This document shows positions 19,898 through 29,322 of a stretch of 64,000 bases of DNA, piece by piece; the stretch's first letter is position 1, and each line of letters begins with the position of its first letter. Source of the stretch: an uncultured Verrucomicrobiota bacterium (GTDB lineage: Bacteria > Verrucomicrobiota > Verrucomicrobiia > Palsa-1439); contig CAINDI010000143.1 in assembly GCA_903847335.1 (NCBI GenBank), positions 9,946-73,945 of the forward strand, written 5' to 3'. The notes under the pieces were generated by a model, which did no database searches, was not told where the DNA came from, and saw only the letters and a program-made list of their open reading frames with translations. The translations under genes and the position numbers were made by a program.

Positions 19898-20989
19898 ATG
19901 ACACTTAAATTACGGGACAAATTTACTTTCGATCAACTTTCCCTCGGCGAAGTCATGTTGCGACTCGATCCCGGCGAAGGCCGCATCCGGACGGCGCGCG
20001 AATTCAAAGCGTGGGAAGGTGGCGGTGAATACAATGTCGCCCGTGGACTTCGCAAATGCTTTGGCCTGAAAACCGCCGTCTGCACGGCATTTGTCGACAA
20101 TGAAGTCGGGCATCTCATCGAGGATTTTATTCTGCAAGGCGGTGTCGTGACTGATTTCATTCAGTGGCGACCGGATGATGGAATCGGGCGAACGATTCGC
20201 AACGGACTCAATTTTACCGAGCGCGGTTTCGGCGTTCGCGGTGCGGTTGGTGTTTCAGATCGTGGTAACACCGCCGCTAGCCAACTCAAGCCCGGTGATT
20301 TCAACTGGGATAAAATCTTCGGTGAACTTGGTGTGCGCTGGTTTCATACCGGTGGCATTTTTGCGGCATTAAGCGAATCGACAGCGGCGCTAACGATTGA
20401 AGCCGTCAAAGCCGCTGCGAAATACGGCACAATCGTCAGCTACGATTTGAATTACCGGCCCAGTCTCTGGAAGAGTATCGGCGGTCCGGCGAAAGCCCGG
20501 GAAGTGAATCGCGAGATTGCCAAGTATGTAGATGTAATGCTGGGTAATGAAGAAGATTTCACCGCTAGTCTCGGTTTCGAGGTGAAAGGTATCGACCACA
20601 ACATCACCAAGATTGAAACGGATGCCTTCAAGCAGATGATTTCAACTGCTGTCAGCGAATTCAAAAATTTCAAAGTCGCCGCGACGACTTTGCGGTCGGT
20701 CATCACCGCGACGAAAAACGACTGGAGCGCGGTTTGCTGGATGGATGGCAAATTCTACGAGAGCCGTAAATATCCCGGTCTCGAAATTCTCGACCGGGTC
20801 GGCGGTGGCGACAGTTTTGCCAGTGGTTTGATTTATGGTTTTCTCAAAACCGGTGATCCGCAAAAAGCGGTGGATTACGGCGCGGCGCACGGCGCATTGG
20901 CGATGACGACCCCCGGCGATACTTCGATGGTTACCGGTAAGGAGGTTGAAAAACTGATGACCGGTGGTAGCGCCCGCGTTCAACGCTGA
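19898..20989 (+). CDS. PfkB-family sugar kinase (2-keto-3-deoxygluconate kinase-like).
   Basis: 363 aa ribokinase fold. C-terminal motif GGGDSFASGLIYG. N-terminal GEVMLRLDP matches the KdgK-like pattern. Confidence 0.7.
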   Translation: MTLKLRDKFTFDQLSLGEVMLRLDPGEGRIRTAREFKAWEGGGEYNVARGLRKCFGLKTAVCTAFVDNEVGHLIEDFILQGGVVTDFIQWRPDDGIGRTIRNGLNFTERGFGVRGAVGVSDRGNTAASQLKPGDFNWDKIFGELGVRWFHTGGIFAALSESTAALTIEAVKAAAKYGTIVSYDLNYRPSLWKSIGGPAKAREVNREIAKYVDVMLGNEEDFTASLGFEVKGIDHNITKIETDAFKQMISTAVSEFKNFKVAATTLRSVITATKNDWSAVCWMDGKFYESRKYPGLEILDRVGGGDSFASGLIYGFLKTGDPQKAVDYGAAHGALAMTTPGDTSMVTGKEVEKLMTGGSARVQR

Positions 20990-20995
20990 GCGACG

Positions 20996-22177
20996 TTACC
21001 GGCGGTCGAGAATCTCCCAAACTTTTGCGATATAAAACCGGTAATTTGCGAGCGGTGTGCCATTGGGAATCCGGTGATCTAGTCCGAAGACGCAACCGCC
21101 AGTCTGCATGATTACCGGTAGCTTATATTCTAATTCTGCAGTGATTTCTTGCTGACTCCTGCGTAAAATATGTTTATCAAGACCGCCGAGAAAAGCGATA
21201 CGGTTACCATATTGTTCGCGGAGTTTAACGATGTCCATTCCTGCGGCTGGCTCGCACGGGAAAATACAATTTACGCCGGCATCCAAAAACGCCGGGATGA
21301 TTGGTCGCATATCGCCATCGCTATCCTGTTTAAACAAACGTGCACCGCGTTCCTGAGCTAAATCCCAAACGCGCCGGTAATACGGTTTGATAAATTCTTC
21401 GACATGTTTCGGGCCAATGAGCGGCCCACTTCTTCCTGCCATGTCTTCATGCACGGAAAGTTGATCGACGTGTGGCAAGTGTTCGCAAATCCGGACGACG
21501 GTTTCCGTAATGGTTTCGAGAATCGCGTGGATCAGTTCCGGTTGCTCGTAACAGGCCAGCGCTAGAGATTCTTCTCCCATCAGTTGGCGCGGCTCGTCGA
21601 AACCGCCAGGAATTTGAAGCGAGGTCAGTTGACCGGCTGTCGATTGTAACTGGCCGAAGCGCGCTTCCGAAAATTCATAATGCTGCCGGATGCGTTGCCA
21701 ATCATCCATATTTGCCACCGGATACGTTGTCGGCAAAGCCAATGTTGCGGATTTCTTGGCCATCTCCATTCGGCGTCCCATTTGGTCGCGATACACAAGC
21801 GAATCGGCTGTGTCTTCGAGAATGACCGGTTCATCTCCGCCGAGCCAGCCTGTGATTACCGGTAAGTTATTTTCAATGACTGTGCGATATCGGAAAGTCG
21901 AAAGATTGATTTCGACTGGCGTTGCGCCTTGTGCGGCCCATTCTTCTTTCAGCCCCACCAACGGGCCGAAAATTTCCGTGAACAATGGCCGGGTGTTCGC
22001 GCGAAACGTCATGTAGTCGAGATACTCCTCCCGGCTGACGATTTCACCGCCGCGTTTAATTGCGAGTGCTGCGTGAAAGGAGTGGATGTAGTCGTTGACA
22101 TTCATTGGCGTATTTTCTCGTGCGGCGACGGATTCGGCAATGGACAGACTCCGCAAAGTTTTGTACTTATGGCGCAT
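20996..22177 (-). CDS. Uroporphyrinogen decarboxylase (URO-D) superfamily protein, not HemE-like; substrate unknown.
   Basis: 393 aa. The length and hydrophobic TIM-barrel pattern resemble the URO-D/MtaA family. This is the first of two such paralogs in the window. Confidence 0.45.
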   Translation of the reverse strand: MRHKYKTLRSLSIAESVAARENTPMNVNDYIHSFHAALAIKRGGEIVSREEYLDYMTFRANTRPLFTEIFGPLVGLKEEWAAQGATPVEINLSTFRYRTVIENNLPVITGWLGGDEPVILEDTADSLVYRDQMGRRMEMAKKSATLALPTTYPVANMDDWQRIRQHYEFSEARFGQLQSTAGQLTSLQIPGGFDEPRQLMGEESLALACYEQPELIHAILETITETVVRICEHLPHVDQLSVHEDMAGRSGPLIGPKHVEEFIKPYYRRVWDLAQERGARLFKQDSDGDMRPIIPAFLDAGVNCIFPCEPAAGMDIVKLREQYGNRIAFLGGLDKHILRRSQQEITAELEYKLPVIMQTGGCVFGLDHRIPNGTPLANYRFYIAKVWEILDRR

Positions 22178-22951: not shown

Positions 22952-23506
22952 TTACCAGTAAATGAAATTGGTAAAGCGGCGCTGGTCTTTGGTGGGGAGT
23001 GCTAACACGTCGGGGACGATGAAACGGTTGTCGTTCACATCCAGCAAGACTTTGCCTTCGGCTCCGAAATCTTCCGCCCGGTCGTGACGCCACGGCATGA
23101 TGAATTCCTGCCGGCCACGTTGAGTTTCCACGTCGAAGAATAGCAAGCCAAACTCGTGGCGAACGCCGTACACCCGGTGGATGATGTGTTCGTGGTATTG
23201 CTTTTTCAGAACGGCTTGAATCAAGGTCTGCGTTTCTTTTGGGAATGCGCTGAGGTTTTCAATGACGCCGATTTCGCCGACTTTATCTTTTTCGTCGGTA
23301 TAGCGTAGCGAGATGTAGCGGTCGGGATGGCGAATTGGAAACATCAATACAGCAAACACGCCTCGGTACATCTGGTCGCCTTTCACCGCGCAGTGTAATA
23401 GCGAAAATGCGCCTTCAAAAATGGTGGCCGTTTCCGGTAGCAACCGGCGCACGCCGGTAATCGAGAGCCGGTTGTCAGAGGTTGTTGGGAGAGTCGTGTC
23501 GCTCAT
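22952..23506 (-). CDS. Hypothetical cytoplasmic protein, 184 aa, transcriptionally linked to the upstream ABC exporter (possibly DUF1854-like).
   Basis: Its start codon lies 2 nt after the ABC gene stop on the same strand. It has no TM segments or signal peptide. Confidence 0.4.
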   Translation of the reverse strand: MSDTTLPTTSDNRLSITGVRRLLPETATIFEGAFSLLHCAVKGDQMYRGVFAVLMFPIRHPDRYISLRYTDEKDKVGEIGVIENLSAFPKETQTLIQAVLKKQYHEHIIHRVYGVRHEFGLLFFDVETQRGRQEFIMPWRHDRAEDFGAEGKVLLDVNDNRFIVPDVLALPTKDQRRFTNFIYW

Positions 23507-23508
23507 GG

Positions 23509-25734
23509 TTATGACTCCAACCGGGTCAACTCCGTTTGGATGCGGACTAAATTGTGATAGACACCTTTCAGTTCTAGTAGTTGCTCGTGCGAACCGGATT
23601 CAGCTACTTTGCCTTCATCAATCACATAAATCACATCGGCATTTTTTAATGTCGAGAGCCGGTGGGCAATCGCAATGGTCGTGCGGCCTTTGCATAATCT
23701 GACCAGCGCTTTCTGAATTTCTTGTTCCGATTCGGTGTCCACTGACGAGGTGGCTTCGTCGAGAATGAGAATCTTTGGGTCGCACAGCAATGCACGGGCA
23801 ATGCTGATGCGCTGGCGCTCTCCACCGGAGAGACCGGCACCGCGTTCGCCTAACTTCGTGTCGTAGGCGGACGGAGCGCGAGCGATAAAATCGTGGGCGT
23901 TCGCGGCTTTAGCGGCGTCCATCACAGCCAACGGTGAAGCGCCGGGACGACCGTAGGCGATGTTGTCCATGATTGTCGCTCGGAAAAGGAATGGTTCTTG
24001 AAGAACCAGCGCAACGTGTTTGTGAATGTCGTGCTGAGCGAGTGTGCGCACGTCTTGGTTGTCGATGAGCACTTGTCCATCTTGCGGATCGTAGAATCGG
24101 CAGATGAGATTTACTAAGGTGGTTTTACCGGAGCCACTTTTACCGACGATGCCGACGAACTGGCCGGGCTCAATTTTAATACTGACATTTTTCAGCACCG
24201 GACTGTAGGGATCGTAGCCGAAGGTTACATTGCGGAGCTCAATTGCGCCGTTGATGTTATTCAACGGTGTTGCCTCCGGCTCGTCGGTAATGCCGACGTT
24301 GGCATCCAACACCTCAAATACGCGCTGGCCGGCCGACATGAAACCGGTGAGCCAATTGGAGAACACGCTCATTGCCGAAATCGGTCCGTAGAACATTCCC
24401 ATGTAACCGAAGAATGCCATCAGCGTGCCGAGCGTCAGGTGGCCTTCAAAGACGCGATGACCACCGGCGTACCAGATGATTAATCCGCCGAGGCCGAACA
24501 CGAAACCCATGATTGGATTGAAAGTCGCGACGCTCATTTCGACGGACCGGCGGGCATTCTGCATGTACCGGGCTGAATCGCTGAATCGTTGTTCTTCGCG
24601 TTTTTCCTGTCCAAATAATTTCACCAGTCGGATGCCTTGCAATAGGCCGGTGAGGAGTTGCGACATTTTCGACTGACTATCCGAAAGCCGATAGTATTGT
24701 GGGTAGACATACTTCCAGAAAAAAATTGTTCCGATGACCACGAATGGCACCGGTAGCAAAACTAACAAGGCGAGATGCCAATTCATCATGAACAAGACTG
24801 CACCGATGCCGAGGACGAGAATGACATTTAGCAGAAATCCTTGTGCGACTTGCCAGACGAAACCTTGAAAATATTCCACGTCCCACAACACCCGGCTCAT
24901 TAAACTACCGGCCGAGTGCCGGTCATAATAATCCACGCTCAGACTCATCAGTTTGGTCTGCAGCCGTTCGCGTAATTCCTTAGAAACTCGCGTGCCAATC
25001 ATGCTGCTCGTCCGTCCGATAATCACATTCAAAAATTGTCGACCCAGCGACGCGCCGACCAGTCCGAGCAAAATCAGCGGCAACCAATGGATGTTTTCCT
25101 TCGGCGTCAGGACTTTATCCACGAGAATCCGGGTTAAATACGGAGGCAATAAATCTAATCCGACGCCCATAACCAAGATGCACAGCAGTAGCACGATGGA
25201 GTTCTGATACGGTTTCATTAGCCCCACGGACCGGAAAAACACACTACGACCACCGGCGCAACGTGGACACACCGCCCGGCGCGCCGGCAATGGTAATCCG
25301 CATTTCGTGCACGCAAACTCACTGGGGTGCACTAACGCTTCGGTGTTCAGTGGGTGGCCTTGGATCAGGCGTTCCAATTCCGCACGCACCTTGCCGAAGA
25401 TTTCGCGACGGGCGTTGCTGTAACGCGCCACGTCCACATAGGTGCCATCAATCAGCAGCTGTAAGAAACCGCTGCCAACCGTGTGGCGCGTTTGGACTTT
25501 CTGCGCATCTTTCAGTAAAAAAGGACCGGTGATGAGTGCAGTTGGTTGTGAGTGGGTCGGAACTGTAAAAATTTTTGTTTGAGTAACAACAACCCAAACA
25601 TCCTGAACCGTGCCGTCGATGGTGAGATCGCTGCGGACGCTGAACAGACACGCATCAGCGCCGAGGTTATGAACTTCCGGGCGCGTGTTTAATTCGCTCG
25701 GTACGCGCCCCAACAACAAATCGTTATTCGTCAT
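23509..25734 (-). CDS. ABCB-type exporter (fused TMD-NBD half transporter) with an extra ~160-aa N-terminal cytoplasmic domain containing a CxxC-x10-CxxC zinc ribbon.
   Basis: 741 aa. Residues ~165-480 form a 6-TM ABC exporter domain. The NBD carries Walker A (GKSGSGKTT), the signature (LSGGERQR) and Walker B (ILILDEAT). The N-terminal domain has CTKC...CPRC. Confidence 0.85.
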   Translation of the reverse strand: MTNNDLLLGRVPSELNTRPEVHNLGADACLFSVRSDLTIDGTVQDVWVVVTQTKIFTVPTHSQPTALITGPFLLKDAQKVQTRHTVGSGFLQLLIDGTYVDVARYSNARREIFGKVRAELERLIQGHPLNTEALVHPSEFACTKCGLPLPARRAVCPRCAGGRSVFFRSVGLMKPYQNSIVLLLCILVMGVGLDLLPPYLTRILVDKVLTPKENIHWLPLILLGLVGASLGRQFLNVIIGRTSSMIGTRVSKELRERLQTKLMSLSVDYYDRHSAGSLMSRVLWDVEYFQGFVWQVAQGFLLNVILVLGIGAVLFMMNWHLALLVLLPVPFVVIGTIFFWKYVYPQYYRLSDSQSKMSQLLTGLLQGIRLVKLFGQEKREEQRFSDSARYMQNARRSVEMSVATFNPIMGFVFGLGGLIIWYAGGHRVFEGHLTLGTLMAFFGYMGMFYGPISAMSVFSNWLTGFMSAGQRVFEVLDANVGITDEPEATPLNNINGAIELRNVTFGYDPYSPVLKNVSIKIEPGQFVGIVGKSGSGKTTLVNLICRFYDPQDGQVLIDNQDVRTLAQHDIHKHVALVLQEPFLFRATIMDNIAYGRPGASPLAVMDAAKAANAHDFIARAPSAYDTKLGERGAGLSGGERQRISIARALLCDPKILILDEATSSVDTESEQEIQKALVRLCKGRTTIAIAHRLSTLKNADVIYVIDEGKVAESGSHEQLLELKGVYHNLVRIQTELTRLES

Positions 25735-25829: not shown

Positions 25830-26423
25830 TTATTTATTTACGGCTTCGAAGTATTTCAGCGAGCCTTTCGGATCGGCTTTCATGGTCTTGTCGCCGGGAT
25901 GCCAGTTAGCCGGGCAGACTTCGCCGTTTTTCTCGAAGAATTGGAGTGCATCGAGAATACGAATGGCTTCGTCCACATTCCGTCCGAGCGGTAGGTCGTT
26001 GACGAGCGCGTGGCGGACGATGCCTTGTTGGTCAATGATGAAGAGTCCGCGCAGTGCCACCGCACCGTTGGCAGTGAGCACGCCGTAGCTGGTGGCAATC
26101 TGTTTGGTGAGGTCGGAAACGAGCGGATAATCCAGACCGCCGAGACCGCCGGCCTTCCGGGGAGTGTTAATCCACGCGAGGTGCGTGTATTGGCTATCGA
26201 CGCTGACACCGAGAATTTCGGCGTTGCGGCTTTTGAATTCAGCCACTTTTTCATTGAAGGCGATGATTTCCGTCGGGCAGACGAAAGTGAAATCCAACGG
26301 ATAGAAATAGAGGACGACGTACTTTTTACCTTTGTAGTCGCTCAAACTGATGTCTTTGAATTGGCCGTTGACGACGGCGGTCGCTTTGAATTCTGGGGCT
26401 GGTTTCTGAACGAGTGTGCTCAT
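25830..26423 (-). CDS. Typical 2-Cys peroxiredoxin (AhpC/Tsa family).
   Basis: 197 aa. The peroxidatic Cys motif is FTFVCPTEI. The resolving Cys is in GEVCPANW. Confidence 0.9.
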
Positions 26424-26552
26424 GGTTTAATCTCCTTAAGATTGTTAGTGATTGGGCTGAATGGTAGCACAGGAACAACATTTCGCAAGTGGTCAACGCG
26501 AATGCATAGTTTCGGCTTTCCTCTGTCCACAGTCATCCGATATACTTCCGTC

Positions 26553-28007
26553 ATGTCAGTTCAAAACCGCATCATCAAAGTGCAGAAGCGCAACCGGGCA
26601 TTGGTGACCTTTGACGAGCGGGCAATCTTTCTCGCCATCTTGCGCGCGGCTGAATCCATCGGCGGTCTCCAGCAAGATTACCTGCCGGGCGTCAATGACA
26701 AGCTTTTCGATGCCTACGCGCTCGACGAAAAAGTCGCTGAGTTTCTCACGGATGCCGTCGTCATCTGTCTGAATGCCGATCCACATCACCACATCGCCAA
26801 TTTTCCGCCGACCATCGAAACGATTCAGGATGATGTCGTTCACGTTTTGCGCAGCTATGGATTTCAAAATACCGCCGACGCGTACGAATGTTACCGGTGG
26901 GGTCGGCACTGGTTGCGCGAAGGCGCGATTGCCGATACGCAATTCGTCGGCAACGGTTTTCCTCGCAAACGCATGGAGAAAACTCTCGAATGGAACCGGC
27001 AGCATGGTTGCGATACCGTCACCGGTCTCAACGAAGTCGTTCGCAGTGGCAAACTCCAGCCGCTCGTCGAAGCATCGTTAGCGACCTATGAAGCCTCGCT
27101 CGACGAAGCGGCCAAAAAAGTTATCGCCCGTTTTAACGCCGGCGACAAATTGCGGATGATGTGGATTAGTGGTCCGAGTTCCTCCGGTAAGACCACCACC
27201 ACTGTCAAGCTGACGCAACGCCTCGAAAAACAGGGTCTCCGGTTTCTGATGCTCAACCTTGACGATTATTTTTGGGCACTCATCGAACATCCGACGGATT
27301 GGATTAACGACCGGAATTTTGAAACGCCGGAAGCTCTCGACATTCAACTTCTCAATCAACACCTCAAAGATTTGCTCGCCGGTAAGACCATTGATAAACC
27401 GGTGTACAGCTTCAAAGAAGGCCGGCGCATCGCGACGAAGCCGGTGAAGCTTGAGCCGGAGCAGATTCTTTTGCTCGATTGTCTCCACGGATTTTATCCA
27501 CCGATTACCGAAGGCATTGATCCGAGTGCACAATTCCGCGTCTATATCGAAACTCTCAACGTCATGCTCGAAGGCGATGGTTCCACTCGACGTCTCACGC
27601 GGTTTCCGGATATCCGGCTTATCCGCCGGATGCTCCGCGACGTGCAGCACCGCAATCACAGCCCGCTCTCAACTCTGCTGCATTGGCATTATGTTCGCTG
27701 GGGCGAACTTTTTTCCATCATCCCGCTCATGGGGCTGGCGGACCATGTCGTTAACGCTGGGTTTCCGTTTGACTTGCCGGTGTTAAAATCATTTTTCATC
27801 GGTGCCGGTGGTCATTTACCCTCCGGTGAAGCCATGAACCAATATCGCGGCTTCCTCGATGCGCAAATCCGTCACCGGCGCATCCAGACTTTACTCGAAT
27901 CGGTGACCGGTGTGCCGCAAGACCAGTTGCCCAGCTTAATTCCCGGTGACGCCGTCATCCGTGAATTCATCGGCGGCAGTACCATCCCAATCCCACACAA
28001 CCAATGA
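26553..28007 (+). CDS. ATP-cone domain fused to a uridine kinase / phosphoribulokinase-family P-loop nucleoside kinase.
   Basis: ATG at 26553 (M182 of the ORF-track ORF). The upstream part of that ORF is antisense read-through of the prx gene. The N-terminal ~90 aa is an ATP-cone (IIKVQKRNRALVTFDERAIFLAILRA). The P-loop is ISGPSSSGKTTTT, followed by a PRK-like core. Confidence 0.65.
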   Translation: MSVQNRIIKVQKRNRALVTFDERAIFLAILRAAESIGGLQQDYLPGVNDKLFDAYALDEKVAEFLTDAVVICLNADPHHHIANFPPTIETIQDDVVHVLRSYGFQNTADAYECYRWGRHWLREGAIADTQFVGNGFPRKRMEKTLEWNRQHGCDTVTGLNEVVRSGKLQPLVEASLATYEASLDEAAKKVIARFNAGDKLRMMWISGPSSSGKTTTTVKLTQRLEKQGLRFLMLNLDDYFWALIEHPTDWINDRNFETPEALDIQLLNQHLKDLLAGKTIDKPVYSFKEGRRIATKPVKLEPEQILLLDCLHGFYPPITEGIDPSAQFRVYIETLNVMLEGDGSTRRLTRFPDIRLIRRMLRDVQHRNHSPLSTLLHWHYVRWGELFSIIPLMGLADHVVNAGFPFDLPVLKSFFIGAGGHLPSGEAMNQYRGFLDAQIRHRRIQTLLESVTGVPQDQLPSLIPGDAVIREFIGGSTIPIPHNQ

Positions 28008-29152
28008 ACGACCAAACCAAACTCATTACCGGCCTCCAACAAGCCTGGCGGGACGAAAACGCCAGTGCGCGAAATTACCGGGCGTTGTCGGAACGGGAAT
28101 CCAATCCGGAACGCAAAGCAATTTTACTGCGCCTGGCCGAAGCGGAAGACAAGCACGCCGCGAATTGGCTGGCACGCTTGAAAGAACTCGGCGCTGATCC
28201 CGGCCTTTATCAAGAATCCGCTAGCGAACGAACACGCCGGTGGTTGCTTGTGCAGAGTGGTACCGAAAGTGCCGTCGTCAAGTTGGAGGCGATGGAGAAC
28301 GACGCCGATGCGTTGTACGATGATTTGCTGAAAGTTGCCACCGGTGCTGACCACACGCAAATCGCGGAAGCCCAACGCGAAGAAGAAGCGCATGCCAAAG
28401 TATTGAACGACATGACCGGCGCATTTTCGCCGACGCAACGCAAATTGGACCGGCTGCTCGGTCGTGAGAAATGGCACGTCACCGCCGGTGGTTGGATTGG
28501 CCAAGCGATTTATGGTGCGAACGACGGTCTCGGCGCGGCATTCGGTGTCGTCAGCGGCGTGGCCGGCGCAACGGCGGCGGACGCGAAATTTGTTTTGTTG
28601 GCCGGTGTCACCACGGCGATTGCCTCGGCGTTGTCGATGGGCAGCGGCGCGTACTTGGCGACAAAATCGGAGCGCGAAGTTTACTCTGCTGAAATCGAAC
28701 GGGAACGTCGTGAAATTGCTGAGAACCCGAAAGAAGAACTCGAAGAGATGGCGTTGTTCTACCAGCTCAAAGGTTTTTCACCGGCCGAAGCGGAAAAGAT
28801 GGCGGCCAAACTCGCGGAGCAGCCGGAGCATTTTCTTCAAACGCTGACGCACGAGGAGCTAGGTTTATCGGAACGGTCGTTCCCAAATCCCTGGCGCGCG
28901 GCGTTCAGCGCCACGGCTAGCACGGCAGTCGGCGCATTTATTCCGGTGATTCCATTTTTCTTCATGCACGGCACGCCGGCGTTGATTGCGTCCTTTGTCA
29001 TCAGTACCGCGGCGCATTTTGGGGTGGGGGCGGCGAAAGTGATTGTCACCGGTCGGTCGTGGTTTAAGAGCGGGATGGAAATGACATTCGTCGGACTCGG
29101 CGAAGCCATCATTACCTACGGCATCGGTTTGCTAATTGCGCGCATCCGGTAA
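28004..29152 (+). CDS. mbfA: Erythrin-VIT1 family protein (MbfA-like): N-terminal ferritin/rubrerythrin-like diiron domain plus C-terminal CCC1/VIT1 iron-manganese transporter domain.
   Basis: ATG overlaps the stop of the preceding gene (ATGA at 28004-28007). The N-terminal half has ferritin-like E-x-x-H pairs (AEAEDKH, EEEAHAKV). The C-terminal 5-TM VIT domain contains GANDGL. Confidence 0.7.
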   Translation: MNDQTKLITGLQQAWRDENASARNYRALSERESNPERKAILLRLAEAEDKHAANWLARLKELGADPGLYQESASERTRRWLLVQSGTESAVVKLEAMENDADALYDDLLKVATGADHTQIAEAQREEEAHAKVLNDMTGAFSPTQRKLDRLLGREKWHVTAGGWIGQAIYGANDGLGAAFGVVSGVAGATAADAKFVLLAGVTTAIASALSMGSGAYLATKSEREVYSAEIERERREIAENPKEELEEMALFYQLKGFSPAEAEKMAAKLAEQPEHFLQTLTHEELGLSERSFPNPWRAAFSATASTAVGAFIPVIPFFFMHGTPALIASFVISTAAHFGVGAAKVIVTGRSWFKSGMEMTFVGLGEAIITYGIGLLIARIR

Positions 29153-29279: not shown

Positions 29280-29288
29280 ACGTACGAC

Positions 29289-29322
29289 GGGCCTGAAAGC
29301 AATTTCAGGCCCGTTTGTTGTT
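29289..29322 (+). terminator. Rho-independent terminator downstream of the tRNA.
   Basis: A 10-bp GC-rich stem (GGGCCTGAAA / TTTCAGGCCC) with a GCAA loop, followed by GTTTGTTGTT. Confidence 0.6.

Follow-up and report, generated by a model that had tools for sequence, protein, structure and literature searches.

In a 64,000-nucleotide stretch of DNA from an uncultured Verrucomicrobiota bacterium (assembly GCA_903847335.1, contig CAINDI010000143.1, positions 9,946 to 73,945), which we call the window, a single gene encodes a protein of 484 residues that joins an ATP-cone to a long P-loop kinase of the uridine kinase (Udk) fold. We lean slightly towards the view that this protein is a nucleoside kinase regulated by its cone, and we are less confident about any particular substrate. 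The combination of an ATP-cone with a P-loop kinase of the phosphoribulokinase (PRK)/uridine kinase type in one gene had been proposed in a first-pass annotation, and is borne out by a real open reading frame (ORF) and by Pfam, profile and fold evidence.

The amino-terminal domain can be recognized as an ATP-cone in several ways. Pfam ATP-cone (PF03477) matches residues 8-116 with 28.5 bits, against a gathering threshold of 25.8. A profile of the first 135 residues, built from 14 diverse family members and searched against solved structures (PDB), finds the cones of L. blandensis NrdB (5OLK, E 1e-15) and P. aeruginosa NrdA (5IM3, E 2e-15) as well as two cones of class III ribonucleotide reductases (RNRs; E about 1e-10). 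The fold has the N-terminal beta-hairpin capping a four-helix bundle that characterizes ATP-cones, and the N-terminus of the AlphaFold2 (AF2) model resembles the cones of RNRs and NrdR. In the L. blandensis NrdB cone, Asp73 and Arg95 form an internal salt bridge, and Arg102 is a ligand of the gamma-phosphate (PMC5794259). With a numbering offset of 3 in the NrdB alignment, deduced from agreement with five of six residue numbers in the same paper, the salt bridge corresponds to D93-R115 of the window protein, Arg102 to R122, and the Lys-Arg pair of the hairpin to K12-R13. Across 119 Verrucomicrobial orthologues, K12, R13, D93, R115, R118 and R122 vary hardly or not at all. As the ligand-binding residues of the cone are conserved, it is reasonable to infer that ATP or dATP controls the kinase allosterically. 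Among solved cones, the nearest ones take up two dATP and work via oligomerization, and by analogy the cone of the window protein may do likewise. Its mean identity to the window protein in the 119 orthologues (0.81) approaches that of the kinase core (0.87), and this slow evolution speaks against a decaying domain.

The carboxy-terminal domain is closest to uridine kinases. Pfam PRK/uridine kinase covers residues 205-372 with 57.1 bits (gathering threshold 22), and a full-length profile matches T. thermophilus Udk with E 1e-22 over residues 4-197 of 211. The cone and Udk profile matches greatly strengthen the Pfam assignments and cannot be put down to chance. Other PDB matches of this profile are human UCK1 and UCK2 (about 1e-19 to 1e-20), phosphoribulokinases (about 5e-12), nicotinamide riboside kinase (1e-6) and pantothenate kinase (about 1e-4). 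The P-loop GPSSSGKTT, which the first-pass annotation had read as that of the PRK family, is present at residues 207-215. Its G207, S209-S211 and K213 are invariant in an alignment that includes more distant relatives (alignment A1), and in a set of 145 family members neither K213 nor T214 varies. The same annotation had named the AAA and ABC ATPases as families in which the domain might turn out to belong. Matches to both are weak, short, confined to the P-loop and below cut-off, which rules these assignments out. Phosphoribulokinase itself is ruled out by NF005655 (51.9 bits against a cut-off of 236) and by the gap of PDB profile scores to Udk. Since PRK models score far below Udk, ribulose-5-phosphate is an unlikely substrate.

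Roles of active site residues were taken from a review of UCK2 (PMC9163393) and a mutagenesis study of ttCK (PMC5614712) and transferred by profile alignment. The UCK2 residue Asp62, catalytic base and Mg2+ ligand, corresponds to D237, the Mg2+ ligands Ser34 and Glu135 correspond to T214 and D309, and Asp84 and Arg166, which contact the 2' and 3' hydroxyls of the ribose, correspond to E257 and R359 (PMC9163393). The window protein has the fold of a uridine-cytidine kinase (UCK) with P-loop, catalytic Asp and Mg2+ ligands; of the ribose-recognition pair, the Arg is retained, and in place of Asp84 there is an invariant Glu. The 145 members, 72 of which carry a cone and 73 an N-terminus resembling that of threonyl-tRNA synthetase (ThrRS-N type, see below), have kept the catalytic, ribose and lid residues unchanged or with conservative replacements. 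In the lid, R355, R358, R359, R362, D363 and R367 are conserved; R355, R358, R362 and R367 are near-invariant and align with arginines of ttCK. We take these four to bind phosphate.

The base pocket is another matter. Tyr112 of UCK2 has its counterpart in Y285, but the other two residues that contact the base are different: His117 (ttCK Tyr93) is replaced by G290, and Arg176 (ttCK Arg152) by H369. Position 290 is Gly in 136 of the 145 members (68 of 72 cone-type, 68 of 73 ThrRS-N-type), and position 369 is always Tyr or His, never Arg. In ttCK, activity towards uridine requires His or Gln at the position of Tyr93, whereas most substitutions there keep cytidine phosphorylation, Gly or Pro raising the KM (PMC5614712). 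With Gly290 in place of His117 and His369 in place of Arg176, the substrate is probably not uridine. Our best guess from sequence is cytidine or another ribonucleoside, because of Gly290 and because one relative is fused to a (d)CMP kinase (Cmk) domain. The phosphotransfer machinery looks intact and the base pocket remodeled; the protein is an enzyme of Udk fold and not a demonstrable Udk. Of the Udk-type kinase in the first-pass annotation, the fold and the homology stand; a plain Udk with an additional domain does not.

Two other assignments of the substrate have to be weighed here. The protein could be an ordinary uridine/cytidine kinase (EC 2.7.1.48, the label given by JGI) that accepts both substrates and for which the cone is merely regulatory. 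The best match in sequence and in Foldseek is indeed Udk, the catalytic and ribose-binding residues are retained or conservatively replaced, and the Cmk fusion fits as well. However, the udk equivalog cut-offs (TIGR00235 and NF004018) are missed by a wide gap, with 91.5 instead of 220.3 bits and 82.9 instead of 180 bits, the residue termed indispensable for uridine is Gly in nearly all members, the base-contacting Arg is Tyr or His, and the conserved residues 126-200, 334-350 and 406-484 are missing from every characterized Udk. We therefore consider an ordinary Udk unlikely. The second assignment is to another substrate of the PRK/Udk/PanK superfamily (a purine or modified nucleoside, a deoxynucleoside, nicotinamide riboside, pantothenate or a sugar phosphate), with Gly290 making room for a different or larger head group. 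Against it, Udk surpasses PRK, nicotinamide riboside kinase and pantothenate kinase (PanK) in sequence similarity by 10-18 orders of magnitude, the ribose-binding pair E257 and R359 is UCK-like together with Y285 and F287, and the Cmk fusion points to a pyrimidine. We consider such a substrate unlikely as well.

At 484 residues, compared with 211 for T. thermophilus Udk, the protein is also longer than a canonical Udk, as had been noted at first pass, and the extra parts can be located. The excess is made up of the cone (about 125 residues), a helical extension of 75 residues, a pre-lid insertion of about 17 residues and a C-terminal extension of 80 residues. Matches to ThrRS-N-type relatives of about 550 residues start at about residue 143, and judging by them the helical extension (residues 126-200) is part of the kinase module, not of the cone. 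The pre-lid insertion is less conserved (0.70), and R470-E471-F472 in the C-terminal extension (nucleotides 27960-27968) are near-invariant in cone-type and ThrRS-N-type proteins. An AF2 model of the 484-residue protein, built from a 20-sequence alignment, reached a predicted local distance difference test score (pLDDT) of 91.9 and a predicted template modeling score (pTM) of 0.89; a single-sequence model was unusable (pLDDT 36). The pTM indicates a fixed mutual arrangement of the predicted domains. In accordance with the domain assignment made at first pass, the modeled core resembles uridine-cytidine kinases, type I pantothenate kinase and other kinases of the PRK superfamily, among which Udk is nearest by sequence.

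The reading frame itself occupies 26553-28007 on the plus strand, with 484 codons and a stop, starting with ATG at 26553 and ending with the stop codon at 28005-28007. Orthologues (n=120, 76-99% identity, mostly 484-486 residues long) cover 100% of the protein, most of them aligning from residue 1, and the nearest relatives, in the same range of identity, are from Verrucomicrobiae metagenome-assembled genomes. A longer, GTG-started ORF from 26010 in the mechanical ORF list was dropped, because it collides with the oppositely oriented AhpC gene (25830-26423) and orthologues lend it no support. An in-frame ATG at 26502, which adds 17 codons and is used by some gene callers (P0001 has 503 residues), is disfavored since most orthologues begin at the position equivalent to 26553. 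Comparison of orthologous upstream regions brought out a -10-like box, TATACT in the window. The pattern TATAnT stands 6-8 nucleotides before the ATG in five other loci (L002, L084, L085, L086, L088), the intergenic regions being otherwise unalignable. Such a box so close to the ATG in six loci suggests that the kinase mRNA is leaderless or has a very short leader, and supports the start at 26553. A consensus promoter scan upstream of the kinase gene called no promoter, TATACT being passed over for want of a good -35 element.

The architecture was presumed rare in the first-pass annotation, and this has to be corrected. In a search of species-representative genomes, for which counts refer to the best 80 loci kept, the cone region was matched in 45 loci from about nine phyla: Verrucomicrobiota (including Kiritimatiellae), Bipolaricaulota, Sumerlaeota, Chloroflexota, Ignavibacteriota/Bacteroidota, Neomarinimicrobiota, Spirochaetota, Hydrogenedentota and Elusimicrobiota. 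A search of 1.84 billion cluster representatives gave 402 matches at E<1e-30, and about 20 of the best 150 matches are full-length cone plus kinase proteins in separate 50%-identity clusters, down to about 26-30% identity. Existing labels are 'uridine kinase' (JGI) and 'ATP cone domain-containing protein' (NCBI). Orthologues from Bipolaricaulota (L004-L009) are 62-70% identical to the window protein, and a subfamily from other Verrucomicrobiota and from Kiritimatiellae (L011, L023, L017, L048) is just 37-40% identical to it, which hints at transfer between phyla or an old paralogy.

The kinase module is also found with a different N-terminus. Proteins of about 550 residues, labeled 'nucleoside kinase' by NCBI, match residues 143-477 or thereabouts only (31-36% identity, E about 1e-37 to 1e-45). 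Pfam was uninformative for their N-terminus, and a PDB profile search showed that its roughly 200 residues are homologous to the TGS and N2 domains of threonyl-tRNA synthetase (E 6.6e-40 to 1NYQ). The module of about 335 residues that is common to both forms has the WN..HGC extension, the Gly at the His117 position, the HW..VR.GE motif and the REF motif, and G290, W378, R470, E471 and F472 are near-invariant in the 72 cone-type and 73 ThrRS-N-type members. As the two types have only residues 143-477 or so in common, the module is a unit that has been joined to at least two different N-terminal domains. The clade of long Udk-like kinases referred to here was defined in the present analysis and is not a curated family.

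Further fusions link the long kinase module to nucleotide metabolism. One protein (P0136, 692 residues) combines a calcineurin-like phosphoesterase (Metallophos) with ATP-cone and kinase. Another (P0220, 2097 residues) has GNAT, HEAT repeats and, directly before the long kinase module, the (d)CMP kinase domain already mentioned, which passes its equivalog cut-off (TIGR00017, 138.9 bits against 135.55). This protein is a single Rosetta-stone hint at salvage of the cytidine type. PADLOC gave one match at the level of the P-loop (E 6.5e-4, 17 bits), PHROGs gave none, and IMG/VR holds a single relative that has the kinase part alone; a role in phages or in defense against them was ruled out on these grounds.

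Together, these data suggest a model for the cone-regulated nucleoside kinase. The C-terminal 340 or so residues form a Udk-fold P-loop kinase, which, judging by homology, would phosphorylate a ribonucleoside at its 5'-OH with the gamma-phosphate of ATP. The P-loop would hold ATP, T214, D237 and D309 would hold Mg2+, and D237 would act as the base. E257 and R359 would bind the ribose hydroxyls, and the Arg-rich lid (residues 351-369) would close onto the phosphates. The N-terminal cone is expected to bind ATP or dATP and may signal to the kinase through the helical extension, most likely, as the analogy to RNR and NrdR suggests, through a change in oligomeric state or in lid closure. Nucleoside salvage would then track the pool of adenine (deoxy)nucleotides.

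Several points weigh against this model, the first of them concerning the cone. Its insertion (residues 36-60) is less conserved (0.71 in the 119 orthologues) and absent from RNR cones, K12 varies among the more distant family members of alignment A1, and the equivalent of a residue of E. coli NrdA that we take to be K21 is Ala in the window protein. Together with a Pfam score barely above the cut-off and a Pfam cone that is missing or weak in some relatives (P0184, and weak or faint at several loci), the insertion and the variable K12 could also mean that the cone is past nucleotide sensing and has been kept as a structural or oligomerization domain. We regard this as very improbable, since the profile matches solved cones with two bound dATP at E 1e-15, the Arg and Asp ligand residues are the same in all 119 orthologues, and the rate of change in the domain is about as low as in the catalytic core. 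The remaining points concern a nucleoside kinase under the control of its cone more generally. The udk equivalog cut-offs are missed, both base-contacting residues differ, and with Gly290, W378 and the REF motif near-invariant, the pocket would resemble that of no solved UCK, so that the substrate could differ. The domain arrangement rests on a prediction from 20 aligned sequences, neighbor clustering and a Pfam census found no nucleotide-metabolism gene that recurs beside the kinase gene across phyla, and literature searches turned up no biochemical data on any family member.

A wider proposal is more tentative, and as a whole we would call it conceivable rather than probable. According to this proposal, the ATP-cone also controls a widespread clade of long Udk-fold kinases with a specificity of its own (Gly290/Tyr-His369/REF pocket), and the sensor is interchangeable between ATP-cone and ThrRS-like TGS plus N2 domains. 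Salvage would be tied to the adenine (deoxy)nucleotide signal of dNTP synthesis, and Verrucomicrobia of the Limisphaerales type would use the enzyme in a peroxide/iron-stress cluster.

The last element of this proposal stems from the gene neighborhood. The ATG of a downstream Rubrerythrin-VIT1 fusion gene overlaps the stop codon of the kinase gene by 4 nucleotides (ATGA, 28004-28007), and because of this overlap the two genes are probably co-transcribed. In the window, there is no strong terminator between them, and the VIT1 gene is followed by a terminator-like hairpin whose stem has 13 bp (29286-29315). The fusion presumably resembles the MbfA iron exporters. On the other side, the gene for a 2-Cys peroxiredoxin (AhpC) is divergent from the kinase gene. 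Coordinates of the genes and of the parts of the kinase protein are listed in the table.

Table. Features of the cone-kinase gene, its product and its immediate neighbors (nucleotide positions in the window; residues of the 484-residue protein)
Feature	Residues	Nucleotides	Strand	Basis or remarks
2-Cys peroxiredoxin (AhpC) gene, divergent		25830..26423	-	Pfam AhpC-TSA 1.6e-41, 1-cysPrx_C; 129-nt shared intergenic region
-10-like hexamer TATACT		26541..26546	+	read from sequence; 6 nt 5' of ATG
Whole gene, ATP-cone plus long Udk-like kinase		26553..28007	+	ORF list, translation, orthologues, AF2 model
ATP-cone domain	4-125	26562..26927	+	beta-hairpin 9-19 with K12-R13; helical bundle ending Y114-R115-x2-R118-x3-R122
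Cone-internal insertion after first helix, about 20-25 residues	36-60	26658..26732	+	gap relative to 5olk and 5im3; two short helices predicted
Helical extension, motif WN..HGC.T...LNE	126-200	26928..27152	+	helices 138-150, 156-164, 168-195; motif conserved in A1
Udk-fold kinase core	201-405	27153..27767	+	
Walker A / P-loop GPSSSGKTT	207-215	27171..27197	+	sequence read
Beta-hairpin flap over nucleoside site, with Y285, F287, G290	280-298	27390..27446	+	strands 280-286 and 291-298; ttCK alignment
Family-specific pre-lid insertion, about 17 residues	334-350	27552..27602	+	13-column gap relative to ttCK and UCK1
Lid helix DIRLIRRMLRDVQHRNH	351-369	27603..27659	+	alignment, family invariance
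C-terminal extension, motif IP.D..REFIGGS	406-484	27768..28004	+	helices predicted; missing from Udk
Rubrerythrin + VIT1 fusion gene		28004..29152	+	Pfam VIT1 3.4e-65, Rubrerythrin 6.8e-06

In 8 of 12 Verrucomicrobial loci, the kinase gene has peroxide- or iron-stress genes nearby, and which ones they are (AhpC, KatG, small AhpC/TSA redoxins, Rubrerythrin-VIT1, MIP channel) varies by locus. The order of the window, with divergent AhpC, kinase and a Rubrerythrin-VIT1 gene that overlaps the kinase stop, is repeated on the P0006 contig. Elsewhere, KatG and a MIP channel are found 5' of the kinase gene (L081), or KatG 5' and a small redoxin and Rubrerythrin-VIT1 3' (L082, L083). Redoxin genes flank the kinase gene on both sides in L085, AhpC lies two genes 5' in L086, MIP is the sole adjacent stress gene in L087 (5', with Rubrerythrin-VIT1 about 4 kb 3'), and in L001 a redoxin-like ORF overlaps the kinase stop. 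No peroxide- or iron-stress neighbors are present in L002, L003, L084 and L088. The enzyme could thus belong to a peroxide/iron-stress response in Verrucomicrobia of the Limisphaerales type and supply salvaged nucleotides whenever RNR or oxidant-sensitive steps of de novo synthesis are compromised, which would be compatible with a cone-regulated nucleoside kinase. The 8 loci with their varying composition and the overlap of the Rubrerythrin-VIT1 start with the kinase stop in the window speak for such a role. Against it stand the four loci without the association and its absence from any other phylum. Moreover, the genomes are related and the neighboring genes orthologous (AhpC of L086 is 83% identical to that of the window, VIT1 70%), so that inherited synteny is a sufficient explanation. 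We judge a role in stress quite unlikely, and yet consider the recurrence with differing peroxidase genes a reason why co-regulation with peroxide or iron stress is worth testing.

Beyond Verrucomicrobia, all-against-all clustering of neighbors found no operon that is conserved across phyla, and a Pfam census of 128 neighbors, which covered 42 of the 45 cone-type loci, counted each family three times at most. The clustering recovered rpoD directly 5' of the kinase gene in three cone-type loci (L011, L023, L048) and nothing else. VIT1 was ruled out as a general partner, since it is confined to close Verrucomicrobial relatives.

Some other observations on the neighborhoods should be recorded. 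The 4-nucleotide overlap of stop and start recurs in L001 (3064-3067), in L087 (7461-7464) and on the P0006 contig, and the gene that overlaps the kinase stop varies by genome (Rubrerythrin-VIT1, a redoxin-like ORF or a PF1765-like protein); in L081, the final base of the kinase gene is also the first of a Ppx-GppA gene. Three loci, which may represent a single lineage, have a complete threonyl-tRNA synthetase gene right beside the cone-type kinase gene (alignment A4); this proximity is curious because the sister form of the kinase has a ThrRS-like N-terminus. In Lachnospiraceae and relatives (L054, L062, L069-L079), the 550-residue kinase ends a dGTPase-like - dnaG - rpoD - trmK-like string of genes, named by inspection of the sequences, with rpoD alone checked, in other loci. 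In the window, a DUF1854 protein (184 residues) is encoded immediately downstream of a 741-residue ABC exporter (22952-25734, minus strand), which has an N-terminal extension of about 170 residues with a Cys-rich CxxC...CxxC stretch. A few kb upstream of the kinase gene (19898-22177) are genes for a PfkB-family sugar/nucleoside kinase (363 residues) and a distant URO-D-like protein (393 residues), and a URO-D and PhyH pair is also found near the kinase gene in L081.

As far as we found, the cone-kinase architecture is already catalogued in databases and has not been characterized experimentally in the literature. Among the ATP-cone papers since 2016 that were listed, nearly all deal with RNR or NrdR and none with a nucleoside kinase, and our searches found no paper linking ATP-cones with uridine or nucleoside kinases. 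Searches that combined ATP-cone with 2-phosphoglycerate kinase, or uridine kinase with TGS, also returned no relevant paper. The original description of the ATP-cone reportedly noted cones in some proteins other than RNRs, including archaeal 2-phosphoglycerate kinase.

If the kinase is indeed regulated by its cone, then the ATP/dATP switch would be a general module of nucleotide metabolism, and the protein, being small and single-chain, would be a convenient system to study cone allostery. Thousands of 'uridine kinase' entries in databases may carry the wrong substrate, because the base pocket is conserved and yet non-canonical. The family is common in phyla that have been little cultured (Verrucomicrobiota, Bipolaricaulota, Anaerolineae, Ignavibacteriota, Neomarinimicrobiota), and in these, what is known of salvage capacity bears on metabolic reconstructions. 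Such a finding would somewhat surprise specialists for RNR and the ATP-cone, even though the protein is neither rare nor unannotated.

Compared with known systems, the window protein is a composite. Uridine-cytidine kinases (ttCK, 3ASY/3ASZ; human UCK2, 1UEJ) are less than half as long and are separated from it by the equivalog cut-off. In the long kinase family, His117/Tyr93 of UCK2 and ttCK is replaced by Gly, Arg176/Arg152 by His or Tyr and Asp84 by Glu, and the window protein adds the ATP-cone, the N-terminal helical extension, the pre-lid insertion and the C-terminal REF extension. Type I pantothenate kinase (CoaA; M. tuberculosis 3AVO) and other members of the PRK superfamily are more distant (identity is only 18%, and the profile E value is about 1e-4 compared with 1e-22 for Udk), and the motifs conserved in the window protein are those of the Udk type. 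Archaeal 2-phosphoglycerate kinase, which we take to be a P-loop kinase with an N-terminal ATP-cone, would be a precedent for the cone-kinase combination, presumably with a kinase of another family and with another substrate. The 'nucleoside kinase' of about 550 residues in Clostridia, Lachnospiraceae, spirochaetes and others has the same kinase module (residues 143-477 or so, including Gly290, W378 and REF) behind the TGS and N2 domains of ThrRS instead of a cone; a uridine kinase of this kind in Treponema pallidum is said to have been noted in the literature on TGS domains. With the cones of RNRs and NrdR (NrdB 5OLK, NrdA 5IM3, class III RNRs, NrdR), the cone of the window protein, known here from sequence and model, shares the fold, but it has an insertion of 20-25 residues after the first helix and is attached to a kinase instead of an RNR subunit or a Zn-ribbon.

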